A DNA stretch of 27,033 bases from a virus (Duplodnaviria; Heunggongvirae; Uroviricota; Caudoviricetes). The notes beneath the pieces were generated by a model. The model was not told where the DNA came from. It saw nothing but the letters and a program-made list of their open reading frames with translations, and did no database searches. The position numbers and the translations under genes are program-made. Below are positions 14,140-21,892 of this stretch, piece after piece. The stretch covers positions 1 through 27,033 of IMG/VR virus record IMGVR_UViG_2537562015_000005; one strand, given 5' to 3'. How positions within the stretch are numbered: position 1 is the stretch's first letter; each line of letters opens with the position of its first letter.

Positions 14140-14442
14140 CTTTGCCGATTATGGATCATGTCAGCTTCACACACCAGAATGGGTGATATATGGATCATCA
14201 TTACCCCAACGGCAGTTTTACACCATGGCTAATATGGATGCTATCTTACTAAGATAATTGGTTTTTAGCGAGTGACGAGCCAGGTTGTGTCAGTCTGTCT
14301 CATGTCGATATTACGGGGATGATGCAAACCTGAATGCTGCGATATTGGCGTGTCAGGGGAGGCATCTTACGGTATCATTTACCGCAATTTTTAAGATGCA
14401 AAGCCCTGCATCGCTAGCTTTTTCTTCAGACCAGGATGATTC

Positions 14443-16029
14443 ATGAACGACAAAATCAGTCAGGACACGATCAACAAAGCCCTGTGGGCCGCGTGTGATA
14501 CGTTCCGTGGCACCATCAGTGCTGATACCTATAAAGACTTTATCCTTACCATGCTGTTCCTTAAGTACATTTCGGATGTCTGGCAGGATCATTACGATGA
14601 ATATAAAAAACAGTATGGTGATGCACCAGAACTCATTGAAGCCATGATGTCGAATGAACGTTTCGTATTGCCGAAAAGCGCCAGTTTCTATGCGCTGTAT
14701 GAACGTCGTCATGAACCGGGCAATGGTGAGCGCATCGACCAGGCTCTGCATGCGATTGAAGAAGCTAATGGCACCAAACTGAAAGACGCCGGGAAAAGCG
14801 TGTTCCAGGATATTTCGTTTAACACCGATCGCCTAGGTGAAGAAAAACAGAAGAACACCATCCTGCGTCAGCTGCTGGAAGACTTTGCCGGTCAAGATCT
14901 TAACCTGAAGCCGAGCCGTGTCGGTACGCTGGACGTTATCGGTAATGCCTACGAATATCTGATCAAAAACTTTGCTGCCAGCGGTGGGCAGAAAGCCGGG
15001 GAATTCTATACCCCACCAGAAGTTTCGGACCTGATTGCAGAACTGCTCGATCCGCAACCGGGTGATACCATCTGCGATCCGGCCTGTGGTTCCGGTTCAT
15101 TATTGATGAAGTGTGGGCGTAAAATTGTCTCCGGGCATGATAGTCGTAACTATGCATTGTTCGGTCAGGAAGCGATCGGTTCTACGTGGTCGCTGGCGAA
15201 AATGAATATGTTCCTGCACGGGGAAGACAACCATAAAATCGAGTGGGGCGATACCATTCGTAACCCGAAGCTGCTCGATAAAAATGGCGACCTGATGCTG
15301 TTTGATATCGTGACCGCTAACCCACCGTTCAGCCTCGATAAGTGGGGCCATGACGAGGCCGAGAACGATAAGTTTGGCCGTTTTCGTCGCGGTGTACCGC
15401 CGAAGACTAAAGGCGATTACGCCTTTATCTCACATATGATCGAAACCCTGAAACCAGGAACGGGGCGTATGGGCGTAGTTGTGCCACACGGTGTGCTGTT
15501 CCGTGGTTCCAGCGAAGGTAAAATTCGCCAGAAACTGATCGACGAAAATCTGCTGGATGCCGTCATTGGCTTGCCGGAAAAACTGTTCTACGGTACAGGT
15601 ATTCCTGCTGCGATTCTGATTTTCAAAAAACAGAAAGTGGATGACAAGGTACTGTTTATCGATGCCAGCCGTGAATATAAGGCGGGCAAAAACCAGAACC
15701 AGCTCAGCGCAGAAAATATCCAGAAGATCGTTAACACCTATCGTGAAGGCGATAACGTCGAGAAATACGCCTATCTCGCCAGCCTGAAAGAGATTCAGGA
15801 CAACGACTATAACCTTAATATTCCACGCTATGTCGATACCTTTGAGGAAGAAGACGAAATTGATTTGCTGGCGGTACGTGCTGAGCGTGAGCAACTGAAA
15901 GCGGAACTGGTAAAGCTGGAAATGGAGATGGCTGGGTATTTGAAAGAATTAGGGTACGATTGGCAGAAAGATTCCGAGGGCACACAAAAAATAAACTCTG
16001 CGGAAGTGAATTTTGGAGATTTTGAATGA
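14443..16029 (+). CDS. hsdM: Type I restriction-modification N6-adenine DNA methyltransferase HsdM
   Basis: 528 aa; AdoMet motif DPACGSGSLL and catalytic NPPF; N-terminal HsdM-type helical domain. Confidence 0.95.
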   Translation: MNDKISQDTINKALWAACDTFRGTISADTYKDFILTMLFLKYISDVWQDHYDEYKKQYGDAPELIEAMMSNERFVLPKSASFYALYERRHEPGNGERIDQALHAIEEANGTKLKDAGKSVFQDISFNTDRLGEEKQKNTILRQLLEDFAGQDLNLKPSRVGTLDVIGNAYEYLIKNFAASGGQKAGEFYTPPEVSDLIAELLDPQPGDTICDPACGSGSLLMKCGRKIVSGHDSRNYALFGQEAIGSTWSLAKMNMFLHGEDNHKIEWGDTIRNPKLLDKNGDLMLFDIVTANPPFSLDKWGHDEAENDKFGRFRRGVPPKTKGDYAFISHMIETLKPGTGRMGVVVPHGVLFRGSSEGKIRQKLIDENLLDAVIGLPEKLFYGTGIPAAILIFKKQKVDDKVLFIDASREYKAGKNQNQLSAENIQKIVNTYREGDNVEKYAYLASLKEIQDNDYNLNIPRYVDTFEEEDEIDLLAVRAEREQLKAELVKLEMEMAGYLKELGYDWQKDSEGTQKINSAEVNFGDFE

Positions 16030-17123
16030 CTCTTAAATGGGAAAAGGTTCGTTTAGGAGATGTCGCAGAATTACAACGTGGTTTTGATCTACCCAGTACT
16101 AAGCGTATTGAAGGGGAGATTCCTATTGTTTCATCAAGTGGAATAACAGGCTTCCATGTTGAAGCGAAGGCAAAGGCTCCAGGAGTTGTCACTGGGCGAT
16201 ATGGTTCGATTGGTGATGTTTTTTATTTAGAACAGGATTTTTGGCCATTAAATACATCCTTATGGGTTAAAGATTTTCATGGAAATGACGAAAAATTTAT
16301 CTACTTTCTGTTGAGTAACTTTGACTTTAAAAAATTTAGTGACAAAACAGGTGTGCCCGGTGTTAACCGTAATGACTTGCATGCAGTGAATGTATTACTG
16401 CCGCCACTCTCGGAGCAAAAGAAAATCGCCCAAATCCTGTCAACCTGGGATAAAGCTATTTCGGTGACGGAAAAGCTTCTCACCAACAGCCAGCAGCAGA
16501 AAAAAGCCCTGATGCAGCAATTACTTACCGGGAAGAAACGCTTGCTGGATGAGAGGGGGGGCAGGTATGGTGGTGAGTGGCATCGTGCTGAGCTTGGCGC
16601 AGTTTTAGATTATATGCAGCCAACCCCTTATCTAGTTGATTCTACTGATTATAATGATAGTTACTCAATCCCAGTTCTTACAGCAGGTAAAAGTTTCATT
16701 CTTGGCTATACCAATGAAGAACATGGTATTTATCATGCACCTTTGCCTGCCATAATTTTTGATGATTTCACGACTGATAGTAAGTTCGTCGATTTTGAAT
16801 TCAAAGCAAAATCCAGTGCGATGAAAATTCTTACAGCCAAAAAAGGAGTATCTGCAAAGTATATTTTTGAAGCAATGCAAATGTTGAAATTTAAAATAGG
16901 TGGGCATCAGCGGCATTGGATTTCAATTTATTCCAACTTAGTAATACCTATTCCAGATGCCAAGGAACAACAAAAAATCGCCGCCGTCCTTTCCGCTGCA
17001 GACGCCGAAATCTCCACACTGGAGAAAAAACTCGCCTGCCTGAAAGACGAGAAAAAAGCCCTGATGCAGCAGTTACTGACCGGAAAACGTCGGGTGAAAA
17101 TCGATGAGGCTGTTGCTGCATGA
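16026..17123 (+). CDS. hsdS: Type I R-M specificity subunit HsdS
   Basis: 365 aa with two target-recognition domains separated by conserved helical repeats (QQKKALMQQLLTGKKRL and EKKALMQQLLTGKRRV). ATGA overlap with hsdM. TRD2 is visibly more AT-rich. Confidence 0.9.
   Translation: MTLKWEKVRLGDVAELQRGFDLPSTKRIEGEIPIVSSSGITGFHVEAKAKAPGVVTGRYGSIGDVFYLEQDFWPLNTSLWVKDFHGNDEKFIYFLLSNFDFKKFSDKTGVPGVNRNDLHAVNVLLPPLSEQKKIAQILSTWDKAISVTEKLLTNSQQQKKALMQQLLTGKKRLLDERGGRYGGEWHRAELGAVLDYMQPTPYLVDSTDYNDSYSIPVLTAGKSFILGYTNEEHGIYHAPLPAIIFDDFTTDSKFVDFEFKAKSSAMKILTAKKGVSAKYIFEAMQMLKFKIGGHQRHWISIYSNLVIPIPDAKEQQKIAAVLSAADAEISTLEKKLACLKDEKKALMQQLLTGKRRVKIDEAVAA
16500..16540 (+). repeat. hsdS conserved central repeat; direct repeat partner at 17052..17089
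   Basis: AAAAAAGCCCTGATGCAGCA(A/G)TTACT(T/G)ACCGG occurs twice within hsdS, about 550 bp apart. Confidence 0.8.
17052..17089 (+). repeat. hsdS conserved C-terminal repeat; partner of 16500..16540
   Basis: See partner repeat. Confidence 0.8.
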
Positions 17124-17803
17124 AACTGACGAAAAGTGGTCCACTGACTGACCGGGAAATCGACTGGCTGGAAGAGGTGTTGATGAAATACGGCAATGAT
17201 GACTCTGTGCTCTGTTTCTCTGAGCTGGATGGCTTTCTGACGGCGATTGTCTCTGGCCCGAATACGATTTCCCCTAATACCTGGCTCAGTGCTATCTGGG
17301 GGCGAGGTGATTACCACCCTCGCTGGACCACTGAAAAAGAGATGACGCGTTTTGTGGGGCTGTGTTTTCAGCATATGAACGATATCGCTGGCTGCCTGTA
17401 TGAGGCCCCTGAACAGTTTGAACCGATTTTCAATGAGCGTGAGGTAAAGGGGGAAAAATATACCATTGTGGAAGAGTGGTGTTTTGGTTATATGAAAGGA
17501 AAGTCACTGGATGACTGGTCTGGTCTTCCCGGTGAGTTACGGCCTTCTCTGGAAGTGATCGCTCTTCATGGCGTGGAGAAGAATTTTCCTGTACTTGAGA
17601 AAATGACCGGAGAGCAGTTTGAGAAAAGTATTTCCCTTATTCAGCCTGCTGCACTGGCACTTTATCAGTACTGGTTGTCAGTGAGAATGTCAGAGGCATC
17701 ATCCCGGCCTGTTCCAGTGAAGGGGGCAGAAAACATGCCCGGGCGAAATGACCCGTGTCCGTGTGGCAGCGGTAAAAAATTTAAGAAGTGCTGTCTGCAT
17801 TGA
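17120..17803 (+). CDS. YecA-like protein (UPF0149 domain + C-terminal SEC-C zinc-binding motif) embedded in the hsd operon
   Basis: 227 aa ending GRNDPCPCGSGKKFKKCCLH (SEC-C motif as in the SecA C-terminus and YecA). N-terminal region resembles YecA. Start overlaps the hsdS stop (ATGA). Confidence 0.8.
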   Translation: MKLTKSGPLTDREIDWLEEVLMKYGNDDSVLCFSELDGFLTAIVSGPNTISPNTWLSAIWGRGDYHPRWTTEKEMTRFVGLCFQHMNDIAGCLYEAPEQFEPIFNEREVKGEKYTIVEEWCFGYMKGKSLDDWSGLPGELRPSLEVIALHGVEKNFPVLEKMTGEQFEKSISLIQPAALALYQYWLSVRMSEASSRPVPVKGAENMPGRNDPCPCGSGKKFKKCCLH

Positions 17804-17852
17804 TGAATCTTCATGTGACCAGTAGCGAGTAGCGCCAGAAAGAAAAGGATTA

Positions 17853-20800
17853 ATGATGAACCAGACGTACACGCCAAAATTCCAGGAAGAATACAGCGCC
17901 AAAATTCCGGCACTGACGTTACTGACCAGCCTCGGCTGGACGTTTTTATCTCCGAAACAGATTATGGATTACCGGGGCTATAAACAGGATGAGGTGGTGC
18001 TGCGTCCGGTTCTGCGTGAAGAGCTGTCGAAGCGTTCCTTTATGGCGGGTGGCAAAACCTGCCAGTTATCGGAAAAAGCACTGGATAACCTGATATCACA
18101 GGTCTGTTCTCCGGCGCTCAATGAAGGGCTGCTCAAAGCCAATGAACGGATGTATAACCATCTGCTCTACGGTATCGCCGTCACGGAGTTTGTCGATGGC
18201 AAGAAGGTCAACCCCACCATTGCGCTGATCGACTGGGAACATCCGGAAAATAACCAGTTCCATTTTACTGAAGAATTTACGGTATTGCGGTCAGGTGGTG
18301 TTGAAACCCGGAGGCCAGATATTGTCTGCTTTGTTAATGGTATCCCGCTGGCTGTTATTGAAGCGAAAAGCCCGGCTGGTCATGGCAAGAAAGGGCCAAC
18401 CATTGACGAGGGGATATCCCAGAGTATCCGCAACCAGTTCAACGATGAAATCCCGCAGCTGTTTGTCTACAGCCAGTTATTACTTTCGATTAACGGTCAT
18501 GACGGGCGCTACGGTACATGCCATACGCCAATGAAATTCTGGGCGGCATGGCGCGAAGAAGATATTACCGATGCGCAGATGTATGCTCTGCGCAACCATC
18601 CTTTATCGACTGAACAAATTCATGCGTTGTTTGATCATCGTCCATCAGCCGATCTCAACTGGTACCAACAGTTAATCGCCGCCGGTGAACTGGCTGTCAG
18701 TGGACAGGACAAACTGCTCATCAGCCTGCTTTCGCCGGAACGTCTGCTGGAGATGACCCGCTTCTTCACTCTGTTTGATAAAAAGACCGGGAAAATTGTC
18801 GCCCGCTATCAGCAGGTGTTCGGTATTAAAAGACTGCTGGAGCGCATCAGTACCCGCAGACCCGATGGGGGCAGGGAAGGTGGTGTTATCTGGCATACCA
18901 CCGGCTCTGGCAAATCGTACACCATGGTGTTCCTCAGCAAGGCGCTGATTCTTCATGACAGCCTGAAGCGGTGTCGTATCGTGGTGGTGACGGACCGTAT
19001 CGATCTTGAAGAACAGCTCAGCAGTACCTTTGCATCCGGCGGCGAGTTGGCCGGGAAAAAAGACAAAGCCAATGCAATGGCGACATCCGGGCAGATGCTG
19101 GCGAAACAGATTGGCTCTGGTAAAGAACGCATCATTTTCACCCTAATCCAGAAATTTAATTCAGCGACAAAACTTCCTGAATGCGTCAATACCAGCCCCG
19201 ATATCATCGTTCTGATTGATGAAGGACACCGTAGCCAGGGTGGTGAGAACCATGTGCGAATGAAACTGGCACTGCCGAACGCCGCCTTTGTAGCATTTAC
19301 TGGTACGCCATTGCTAAAAGAAGATAAGACCACCAATAAATTCGGACCGATTGTCCACGCTTATACCATGCAGCGAGCGGTAGAAGATAAAGCCGTTACA
19401 CCTTTGCTGTATGAAGAACGTATTCCCGACCTTGAGGTTAACGATCGGGCAATAGATGCCTGGTTTGATCGTATTACCGATGGGTTAAGCGAAGCGCAAA
19501 AAGCCGACCTTAAGCGTAAATATGCCCGTAAAGGTGAGGTTTATAGTGCAGATGATCGCATCCGTCTGATCGCACTCGATATCGCCACGCACTTCTCGAA
19601 GAATATTGATGAGGGACTGAAAGGCCAGCTTGCCTGCGACAGCAAGATTTCCGCCATCAAATATAAAAAGTATCTTGATGAAGCCGGGTTGTTTGAGTCA
19701 GCTGTAGTTATCAGCCCGCCGGATACCCGGGAAGGGAATACTGAGGTGGATGAAAGCAAACTGCCGGAAGTGACGAAATGGTGGAAAGATAACGTCGGCA
19801 CGCAGGATGAGTCTGTGTATACCCGCAATATCATCAGTCGTTTCGATACCGATGAGAAGCTCAAATTGCTGATAGTCGTTGATAAACTGCTCACCGGGTT
19901 TGATGAGCCGAAGAATACCGTGCTGTATATCGACAAGCCGCTTAAGTCCCACAACCTTATCCAGGCGATTGCGCGGGTGAACCGACTGCATCCACTAAAA
20001 AAGTTCGGTCTGCTGATTGATTATCGCGGTATTCTGGCTGAGCTGGACACGACTATCGGCAAATATCAGGACCTCGCCTCCCGAACTCAGGGCGGATACG
20101 ACATCAAAGATATTGACGGGCTGTACAGCGCCATGAGCTCTGAATACAAGCGCCTGCCGCATCTGTATAACCAGCTGTGGGCCATATTTGCTGGTGTCAA
20201 AAACAAAAATGATACTGAGCAGTTACGTGCGGTACTGGTGCCTAAAATGGAAGAACGTGACGGAGAGATGGTCGATATCCATCAGAAAACCCGTGATGAT
20301 TTCTTCGAGGCGTTAACGGCCTTTGCCGGATGCCTGAAAGTGGCATTGCAGTCCGCCACCTTCTTCACCGACAAGAGCTTTACGGAACAAGACCGAAATC
20401 TCTATAAAGAAACCGTAAAACAGATGTCCAGCCTGCGCCAGTGGGCGATGCAGGTAAGTGGAGAGCAGGTCAATTATGACGACTACGCTGAGCAGGTGAA
20501 AAAACTGCTGGATAAGCATGTCACCGGCGTTGAGGTTCGTGAACCGGATGGCGTGTATGAAGTCGGTAAAATGGGCAAGAGCGAAAAGCCCGAAGAGTGG
20601 GACAACAATAAAACCCGCAATGAAACCGACATCATTAAAACCCGTGTGACAAAGATGATTGAGCAGGAGCTGCGTGATGACCCGTATGCTCAGGAAGCCT
20701 TTTCAAAACTCCTGCGTATGGCTATTGAAGAGGCTGAAAAACTGTTCGACCATCCGTTGAAACAGTATCTCTTGTTCCGTGAATTTGAAGAACAGGTTGA

Positions 20801-21140
20801 AGCCCGTAAGCTCAGCGATATCCCGGATGCACTGGCGGTAAACAAGCATGCTCAGGCGTATTACGGTGTATTTAAAAAAGAGCTACCAGAGGTTTTTGCG
20901 GTAAACGACGTTCAGGTGCAGGATAAGTGGACGAAGCTGGCTTTTGAAGTGGACAACATTATCGTCAAAGCGGTGGCAGAAAACTCCCTGAACCCACAGG
21001 ATATTGAAAAAGCCGTTAAGACAAGTCTTTTGCCGCTGCTGTTTACGGCCTGCCGGGAGATGGGTGCCGGAATGAATCAGGTTAACCGTATTGTGGAAAC
21101 CATCATCCAGATACTGCGCGTTGGTTTGATGAAATCATGA
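17853..21140 (+). CDS. hsdR: Type I restriction enzyme R subunit HsdR (EcoR124-like, probably type IC)
   Basis: 1095 aa; nuclease region (FVNGIPLAVIEAKS), helicase motifs (GGVIWHTTGSGKS, LIDEGHRSQ, FTGTP, LLTGFDEP, QAIARVNR) colinear with EcoR124 HsdR as recalled. Confidence 0.95.
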   Translation: MMNQTYTPKFQEEYSAKIPALTLLTSLGWTFLSPKQIMDYRGYKQDEVVLRPVLREELSKRSFMAGGKTCQLSEKALDNLISQVCSPALNEGLLKANERMYNHLLYGIAVTEFVDGKKVNPTIALIDWEHPENNQFHFTEEFTVLRSGGVETRRPDIVCFVNGIPLAVIEAKSPAGHGKKGPTIDEGISQSIRNQFNDEIPQLFVYSQLLLSINGHDGRYGTCHTPMKFWAAWREEDITDAQMYALRNHPLSTEQIHALFDHRPSADLNWYQQLIAAGELAVSGQDKLLISLLSPERLLEMTRFFTLFDKKTGKIVARYQQVFGIKRLLERISTRRPDGGREGGVIWHTTGSGKSYTMVFLSKALILHDSLKRCRIVVVTDRIDLEEQLSSTFASGGELAGKKDKANAMATSGQMLAKQIGSGKERIIFTLIQKFNSATKLPECVNTSPDIIVLIDEGHRSQGGENHVRMKLALPNAAFVAFTGTPLLKEDKTTNKFGPIVHAYTMQRAVEDKAVTPLLYEERIPDLEVNDRAIDAWFDRITDGLSEAQKADLKRKYARKGEVYSADDRIRLIALDIATHFSKNIDEGLKGQLACDSKISAIKYKKYLDEAGLFESAVVISPPDTREGNTEVDESKLPEVTKWWKDNVGTQDESVYTRNIISRFDTDEKLKLLIVVDKLLTGFDEPKNTVLYIDKPLKSHNLIQAIARVNRLHPLKKFGLLIDYRGILAELDTTIGKYQDLASRTQGGYDIKDIDGLYSAMSSEYKRLPHLYNQLWAIFAGVKNKNDTEQLRAVLVPKMEERDGEMVDIHQKTRDDFFEALTAFAGCLKVALQSATFFTDKSFTEQDRNLYKETVKQMSSLRQWAMQVSGEQVNYDDYAEQVKKLLDKHVTGVEVREPDGVYEVGKMGKSEKPEEWDNNKTRNETDIIKTRVTKMIEQELRDDPYAQEAFSKLLRMAIEEAEKLFDHPLKQYLLFREFEEQVEARKLSDIPDALAVNKHAQAYYGVFKKELPEVFAVNDVQVQDKWTKLAFEVDNIIVKAVAENSLNPQDIEKAVKTSLLPLLFTACREMGAGMNQVNRIVETIIQILRVGLMKS

Positions 21141-21892
21141 GTGAAAAAGAATCGCCATCAATGAAAGCGTTACGCATTGTTTATGGTGATGAGGTCATCA
21201 CCGTACAGTGTGTTCCGCGTCAGGTCGTAAAGGGCAGGGTGCTCATCAAGGTTTATCCGGACTGCCGGGTTGTGGCCTCTGTACCGCCTGAAACACCGGA
21301 GCACGAGGTATTGTCTGCGCTGAAAAAACGAGGGCGCTGGATATACCAGCAACTGCGTGATTTCAGGGTGCAACAGACACACATTGTTCCGCGTCAGTAT
21401 GTCAGCGGAGAAAGCCATTATTATCTCGGTAAGCAATATCAGTTGAAAGTGACAGAAGACGCTACTGTGCCGCAACGAGTGAAAATGTTGCGTGGGCGTC
21501 TGGAAGTGACTGTCAGACACAAATCGGCAGAAAAGATTAAAGCCTTGCTGGCTGAATGGTATCGGGAACGCGCCAGAGATGTTTTTCAGCGCAGGCTTGA
21601 TTTACTGATTCCGCAGACCCTTTGGGTCAGTGAGCGTCCTCCGATACGTCTGCGGGCGATGCAAACGCAATGGGGCAACTGCTCTGCAAAAGGCTGTCTG
21701 ACCCTGAATCCATGGCTGGTTAAGGCATCCTCAGAATGTATCGATTATGTCTTGCTACATGAGTTATGCCATGTGGCTGAGCACAACCATAGTGAGGAGT
21801 TTTACCGCTTGATGGGGCAGGTTATGCCGGGGTGGGAAAAGGTTAAGAAGCGACTGGATGGTATGGCTGGGATGTTGTTGGCAGATATGTAG
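21137..21892 (+). CDS. HExxH zinc metallopeptidase-like protein (DUF45/YgjP-like), translationally coupled to hsdR
   Basis: 251 aa with LLHELCHVAEHNH (HExxH) near the C-terminus; start overlaps the hsdR stop (ATGA). Confidence 0.8.
   Translation: MSEKESPSMKALRIVYGDEVITVQCVPRQVVKGRVLIKVYPDCRVVASVPPETPEHEVLSALKKRGRWIYQQLRDFRVQQTHIVPRQYVSGESHYYLGKQYQLKVTEDATVPQRVKMLRGRLEVTVRHKSAEKIKALLAEWYRERARDVFQRRLDLLIPQTLWVSERPPIRLRAMQTQWGNCSAKGCLTLNPWLVKASSECIDYVLLHELCHVAEHNHSEEFYRLMGQVMPGWEKVKKRLDGMAGMLLADM

Follow-up and report, generated by a model that had tools for sequence, protein, structure and literature searches.

An Escherichia coli Type I restriction-modification operon with an HsdR-linked putative zinc peptidase and a YecA paralogue in a variable cargo slot

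The plus strand of the window (the whole stretch of 27,033 nucleotides that was analyzed) carries, at 14443..21892, an intact Escherichia coli Type I restriction-modification (R-M) operon that belongs to a widespread lineage. Taking the evidence together, we consider it probable that this is a lineage of four genes, in which hsdM, hsdS and hsdR are joined by a gene for a peptidase directed at HsdR, and that the additional yecA paralogue is an optional cargo maintained by selection. The open reading frames (ORFs) and the domain calls bear out the initial annotation, which had described a five-gene Type I R-M locus with hsdM, hsdS, a YecA-like gene, hsdR and an HExxH gene, in this order; the last gene encodes a YgjP-like protein. 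Published ETEC genomes match the locus at 100% identity, and all parts of the locus have already been catalogued; the functions of the peptidase and of the YecA copy are putative.

In Type I systems, M2S methylates the target, and R2M2S translocates and cuts unmodified DNA. The hsdM gene (14443..16029, 528 aa) encodes the N6-adenine methyltransferase subunit, with the Pfam domains N6_Mtase (3.6e-107) and HsdM_N and a score of 280 bits against TIGR00497 (cut-off 243). Against the PDB, HsdM scores 233 bits with EcoR124II M and 99 bits with EcoKI M, and other solved methyltransferases score better than EcoR124II M. The specificity subunit gene hsdS (16026..17123, 365 aa) has two Methylase_S stretches, corresponding to two target-recognition domains, and the translation also shows both of the conserved helical repeats (…KKALMQQLLTGK…); the protein matches the PADLOC profile Specificity_I (PDLC03101) over its full length with 397 bits. 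HsdR, the restriction/translocase subunit, combines an N-terminal nuclease with an SF2 translocase motor (HSDR_N, 1.8e-46; SWI2_SNF2, 2.2e-75; T1R_D3), and scores 461 bits against TIGR00348 (cut-off 285) and 1373 bits against PADLOC REase_I (PDLC03041). Each of hsdM, hsdS and hsdR is intact, and purifying selection on them is strong (dN/dS of hsdM, ~0.03). HsdM, HsdS and HsdR each place the locus among the Type I R-M systems, and methylation of a bipartite target and ATP-dependent cleavage of unmodified DNA are predicted.

The hsdR ORF (1095 aa to 21140) opens with two ATGs in succession, the first at 17853 and the second at 17856. The AAGGA sequence at 17845-17849 lies 3 nt from the first and 6 nt from the second; because of this distance, the RefSeq annotation, which uses the second ATG, and the homologues, which start with MNQT, the start is most likely 17856 (17856..21140, 1094 aa). 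The initial annotation was right that hsdR is set apart with its own ribosome-binding site (RBS), and the gap of 49 bp given there is therefore more likely one of 52 nt (17804..17855). At the other three junctions, the reported ATGA overlaps of stop and start were read exactly at 16026, 17120 and 21137. Since bacterial operons often contain four-base overlaps, those in one window are unremarkable by themselves; it is the conservation of the junction overlaps across loci, not their presence here, that exceeds chance. Separate promoters and terminators between all genes had been named beforehand as evidence against such a coupled arrangement. No terminator-like site was found on the plus strand at any gene junction of the locus, and promoter-like sites in the region were no commoner than in shuffled sequence (10 found, 11.8 expected). 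The spacer of 303 nt 5' of hsdM contains a candidate sigma-70 promoter (GTGTCA-17-TATCAT, plus strand, 14350..14378), which agrees at 9 of 12 positions and is weak evidence.

A search with HsdR gave 78 loci for comparison, with 36-98% identity in this protein and, going by the contig titles, about 18 phyla. The distance between hsdS and hsdR was greater than 200 bp in 52 of 67 loci, and the stretch from the hsdS stop to the RBS of hsdR forms a cargo slot that is hypervariable. Its contents were 157 ORFs in 100 clusters, 23 of them with at least two members and 77 singletons, and include CBASS, Septu, Schlafen, RhuM, Fic, DUF1016, DUF3800, HerA and AAA_21 genes; outside Enterobacterales, the slot holds defence genes unrelated to yecA. 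Cargo-free four-gene operons were found in Acetobacter, Enterobacter, Citrobacter, Scandinavium and Atlantibacter. As only 21 nt separate hsdS from hsdR in cargo-free relatives, the terminator-free break before hsdR in the window marks where a cargo insertion ends on its right-hand side. The layout in two translationally coupled blocks, described in the initial annotation, is thus a by-product of cargo insertion and not a principle of design.

The gene at 21137..21892 encodes a protein of 251 aa, and its start overlaps the hsdR stop. RefSeq names the product 'M48 family metallopeptidase', which is a loose use of 'M48': the Pfam Peptidase_M48 model found no match in the protein, which by this model falls outside M48 (Ste24/HtpX/BepA). 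The protein is a member of the YgjP-like family PF01863 (195.6 bits, cut-off 26) and has the fold of a minigluzincin, with Spartan and Wss1 as the next closest folds; it falls just below the cut-offs of Pfam WLM (25.8 bits, cut-off 26) and SprT-like (23.5 bits, cut-off 25.6). The N-terminal ~160 residues are without a PDB counterpart. The motif LLHELCHVAEHNH (residues 206-218) contains the predicted zinc site, consisting of H208-E209-x-x-H212 and a third histidine, H218. These four residues were invariant in alignments of 73 and 81 peptidase sequences, so that the HExxH motif, whose loss on careful alignment would have spoken against the initial annotation, was retained throughout. With a pI of 9.5 and a net charge of +12, the protein is strongly basic; the dN/dS of its gene is 0.03-0.10.

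The linkage of this gene to hsdR extends across the lineage. It lies directly 3' of hsdR in 72 of 75 evaluable loci, and among these 72 the two genes overlap (-8 to -1) in 49 and are within 22 nt in 68; in the reverse test, hsdR was directly upstream of the peptidase gene in 55 of 58 metagenomic relatives. Both the coupling of the HExxH gene to hsdR and the recurrence of YgjP/DUF45-type hydrolases as neighbours of hsdR, which the initial annotation had pointed out, were thus confirmed. The correlation of pairwise identities was 0.92 between HsdR and the peptidase and 0.98 between HsdR and HsdM. As judged from these sequence comparisons, the peptidase behaves as a fourth core gene, which is inherited together with hsdR throughout the lineage and whose predicted catalytic site is intact. 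The earlier view that the locus encodes two extra proteins of putative function stands in this respect, but not in giving both the same accessory status, since YecA is optional and the peptidase is core-like. In Sulfitobacter, the peptidase gene is kept beside a truncated hsdR.

The most probable explanation of this partnership is that a small soluble zinc peptidase is translated in cis with HsdR and acts on HsdR-containing complexes, as a basic minigluzincin with Spartan- and Wss1-like next folds would suggest. Most likely, it would remove or inactivate HsdR molecules that have engaged DNA or stalled on it, and the lineage would thereby gain its own route of self-protection or 'restriction alleviation', the role of ClpXP in Type IA and IB. 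Several observations count against a peptidase directed at HsdR: no HsdR-peptidase fusion was found among the best 150 of 22,022 representative relatives, no conserved C-terminal tail of HsdR, as a possible docking or cleavage site, was found, the N-terminal ~160 residues have no PDB counterpart that might account for the choice of substrate, and the WLM and SprT-like scores stay just below the Pfam cut-offs. An alternative possibility is that HsdR guards the peptidase as a latent toxic effector, similar to PrrC or the Lit protease, which is released when a phage inhibits or destroys the restriction complex, cleaves an essential host protein and aborts infection. The tight linkage and translational coupling to hsdR, the intact catalytic site, the precedent of guardian R-M systems such as that of PrrC, and the occurrence of minigluzincins as self-inhibited zymogens (PDB titles of proabylysin and projannalysin) would agree with such an effector. 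However, guard modules are normally optional and swappable, like the genes of the slot, whereas the peptidase is near-universal and evolves in step with HsdR, and its persistence beside the truncated hsdR of Sulfitobacter would be unexpected for a derepressed toxin; we regard a guarded effector as unlikely, and as the best of the alternatives for this gene. The next in order, which we hold to be improbable, is that the peptidase destroys the anti-restriction proteins of invaders, for example Ocr and ArdA, which are acidic mimics of DNA, or ArdB/KlcA and ArdC. Its strongly basic nature and its conservation wherever the R-M lineage occurs could be explained in this way, and metalloprotease-type anti-restriction proteins of plasmids (ArdC) already bring proteolysis into the conflict. 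However, the binding site of DNA mimics is the M2S core and not HsdR, so that one would expect hsdM or hsdS to be the coupled gene, and the protein has no sequence or structural sign of recognizing such substrates. Peptide-bond hydrolysis itself is a prediction from the fold together with the invariant site. E. coli YgjP, on which the family PF01863 was founded, is recorded in UniProt as a weak UTP pyrophosphatase with in vitro activity, which leaves peptidase activity putative for this family. The protein in the window, which belongs to PF01863 and is ~30% identical to the product of a chromosomal E. coli locus (H129, presumably ygjP), might accordingly be a small-molecule (nucleotide) hydrolase that would modulate the pools of nucleotides, or a cofactor, close to HsdR; we rank this last in probability among all alternatives considered here.

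The yecA paralogue (17120..17803, 227 aa) starts within the hsdS stop and encodes UPF0149 and C-terminal SEC-C domains. It scores 361 bits against the YecA equivalog PRK10396 (cut-off 149) and matches both PF03695 and PF02810; the SEC-C metal-binding motif CPCGSGKKFKKCC is conserved and the metal-binding domain is intact. Its identity to the housekeeping YecA of Enterobacterales is 54-59% (57% to a Salmonella protein, P0090), and the embedded copies form a clade with 70-99% identity within it and at most 59% to housekeeping copies. In related loci, the housekeeping yecA lies as a separate gene 3-6 kb farther downstream. Orthology with the housekeeping gene was therefore rejected: the embedding in an R-M locus, the level of identity and the separate housekeeping gene make the embedded yecA a paralogue. 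It is mobile on plasmids and islands, with the chromosomal yecA present besides, and occupies the slot in 10 of the 78 loci, all of them from Enterobacterales. Many of the yecA-carrying loci are conjugative Klebsiella plasmids. The hsdS/yecA overlap was seen in all seven YecA-carrying loci in which the junction was read, as well as in the window. The insertion had already been recorded, as the PADLOC candidate PDC-S12 (Payne et al. 2024 preprint); the profile (PDLC04917) matches residues 5-227 of the YecA copy over its positions 2-218 of 218 (E 1.4e-100). No experimental report of anti-phage activity of PDC-S12 was found in the literature, nor a description of it in the text or supplements of the preprint that were searched, and the listing as a candidate alone is no evidence of antiphage activity of YecA.

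As one of about 100 alternative cargo families, YecA appears to be optional and kept by selection. It would be dispensable for restriction or modification; its holdase domain and SEC-C most likely serve some accessory or defence-related task, in the way that PrrC is an embedded module of EcoprrI. The most plausible of all alternatives, although still an unlikely one, is that YecA is a true accessory factor of the R-M system, namely a ribosome-docking holdase which chaperones or delays the assembly of HsdR onto M2S and tunes restriction in a new host. Housekeeping YecA is a holdase that binds unfolded proteins, and its metal-binding domain binds SecB and ribosomes (preprint 10.1101/2020.07.21.215244). 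The position of yecA immediately before hsdR, its conserved overlap with hsdS, the control of Type IC restriction through assembly and the conjugative Klebsiella plasmids among the carriers would all suit such a factor. However, yecA is absent from backbones with 96-98% identical HsdR and HsdM (loci L019, L022, L023, L031 and L048), and in other related backbones it is replaced by Septu (L026), frameshifted (L024) or reduced to an internally deleted remnant (L029); the unrelated defence genes in the slot outside Enterobacterales also argue against it. The embedded yecA could conversely be a functionless hitch-hiker, recombined from the housekeeping yecA beside the leuZ integration site of the island. 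In several genera, the R-M island lies between glyW-cysT-leuZ and housekeeping yecA, which fits accidental capture and counts against a selected cargo, and the repeated loss of yecA points in the same direction. However, the dN/dS of the yecA copy is 0.11-0.15 at dS ~0.4-1.1, it retains 97 family-conserved positions together with the metal-binding motif, and both yecA sub-lineages have kept it translationally coupled to hsdS; furthermore, the capture is not recent, in that the identity to any housekeeping YecA found is only 54-59%. A functionless yecA is thus very improbable, ahead only of the nucleotide hydrolase.

Among the known systems, EcoR124I has the same gene order, hsdM-hsdS-hsdR, and HsdM in the window is closer to EcoR124II M than to EcoKI M. 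However, the similarity of HsdR is confined to three short motif stretches with 119 bits in total, which is far below the level implied by subunit exchange within a family, and the peptidase gene is extra here; the 'EcoR124-like HsdR' of the initial annotation is correct as a distant likeness but not as a close one. Relatives on Klebsiella plasmids have been called 'type IC' in the literature (PMC11223367). The locus agrees with Type IC in its gene order with hsdR set apart, a separation which amounts to the 21 nt in cargo-free relatives; by the sequence similarity of its subunits (HsdR, 119 bits with EcoR124I; HsdM, 233 bits with EcoR124II M), it falls short of this family, such families being defined by complementation and high sequence identity. 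For Type ID (StySBLI, EcoR9I and KpnAI), which is characterized by identity to or complementation with StySBLI and by target adenines 6 bp apart, there is a weak hint: a relative is carried by 661 of 5426 E. coli genomes (12%), and the share of Type ID among systems in the ICR has been put at a similar 12%. The copies that were inspected, however, are located at leuZ and outside the ICR.

The peptidase resembles the minigluzincins (proabylysin, projannalysin and selecase) and the catalytic domains of M48 and M56, from which it differs in the extra N-terminal ~160 residues; to our knowledge, the archaeal minigluzincins have no link to R-M. Compared with the DNA-protein-crosslink proteases Spartan and Wss1 (SprT/WLM), it remains below the Pfam cut-offs, and DNA binding and HsdR as a substrate are hypothetical. 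ClpXP, which is responsible for restriction alleviation in Type IA and IB, whereas a different, assembly-based mechanism operates in Type IC (PMC12707154, PMC3874165), is an ATP-dependent machine unrelated to the peptidase. ArdC of plasmid R388 also has a metalloprotease domain, but it is an anti-restriction protein encoded by the invader, on the opposite side of the conflict, with an ssDNA-binding N-terminal domain and an effect that does not require protease activity.

The embedded YecA has the same two-domain architecture as housekeeping YecA/AscA, with the CxCx8CC metal-binding motif intact, but it is a mobile member of a separate paralogue clade and is coupled to hsdS. PDC-S12, itself a bioinformatic candidate only, shares the embedding in Type I R-M, in line with the definition of such candidates by their location in Type I R-M, BREX or DISARM. 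We know of no peptidase gene after hsdR in EcoprrI. PrrC is an ABC-ATPase anticodon nuclease, whereas the embedded protein here is of the YecA type (UPF0149 and SEC-C), for which a guard role is only hypothetical. Nevertheless, EcoprrI, a Type IC system and the textbook case of a Type I system with a second module, is arranged likewise as hsdM-hsdS-[embedded gene]-hsdR, and its extra gene occupies the corresponding slot in the same orientation.

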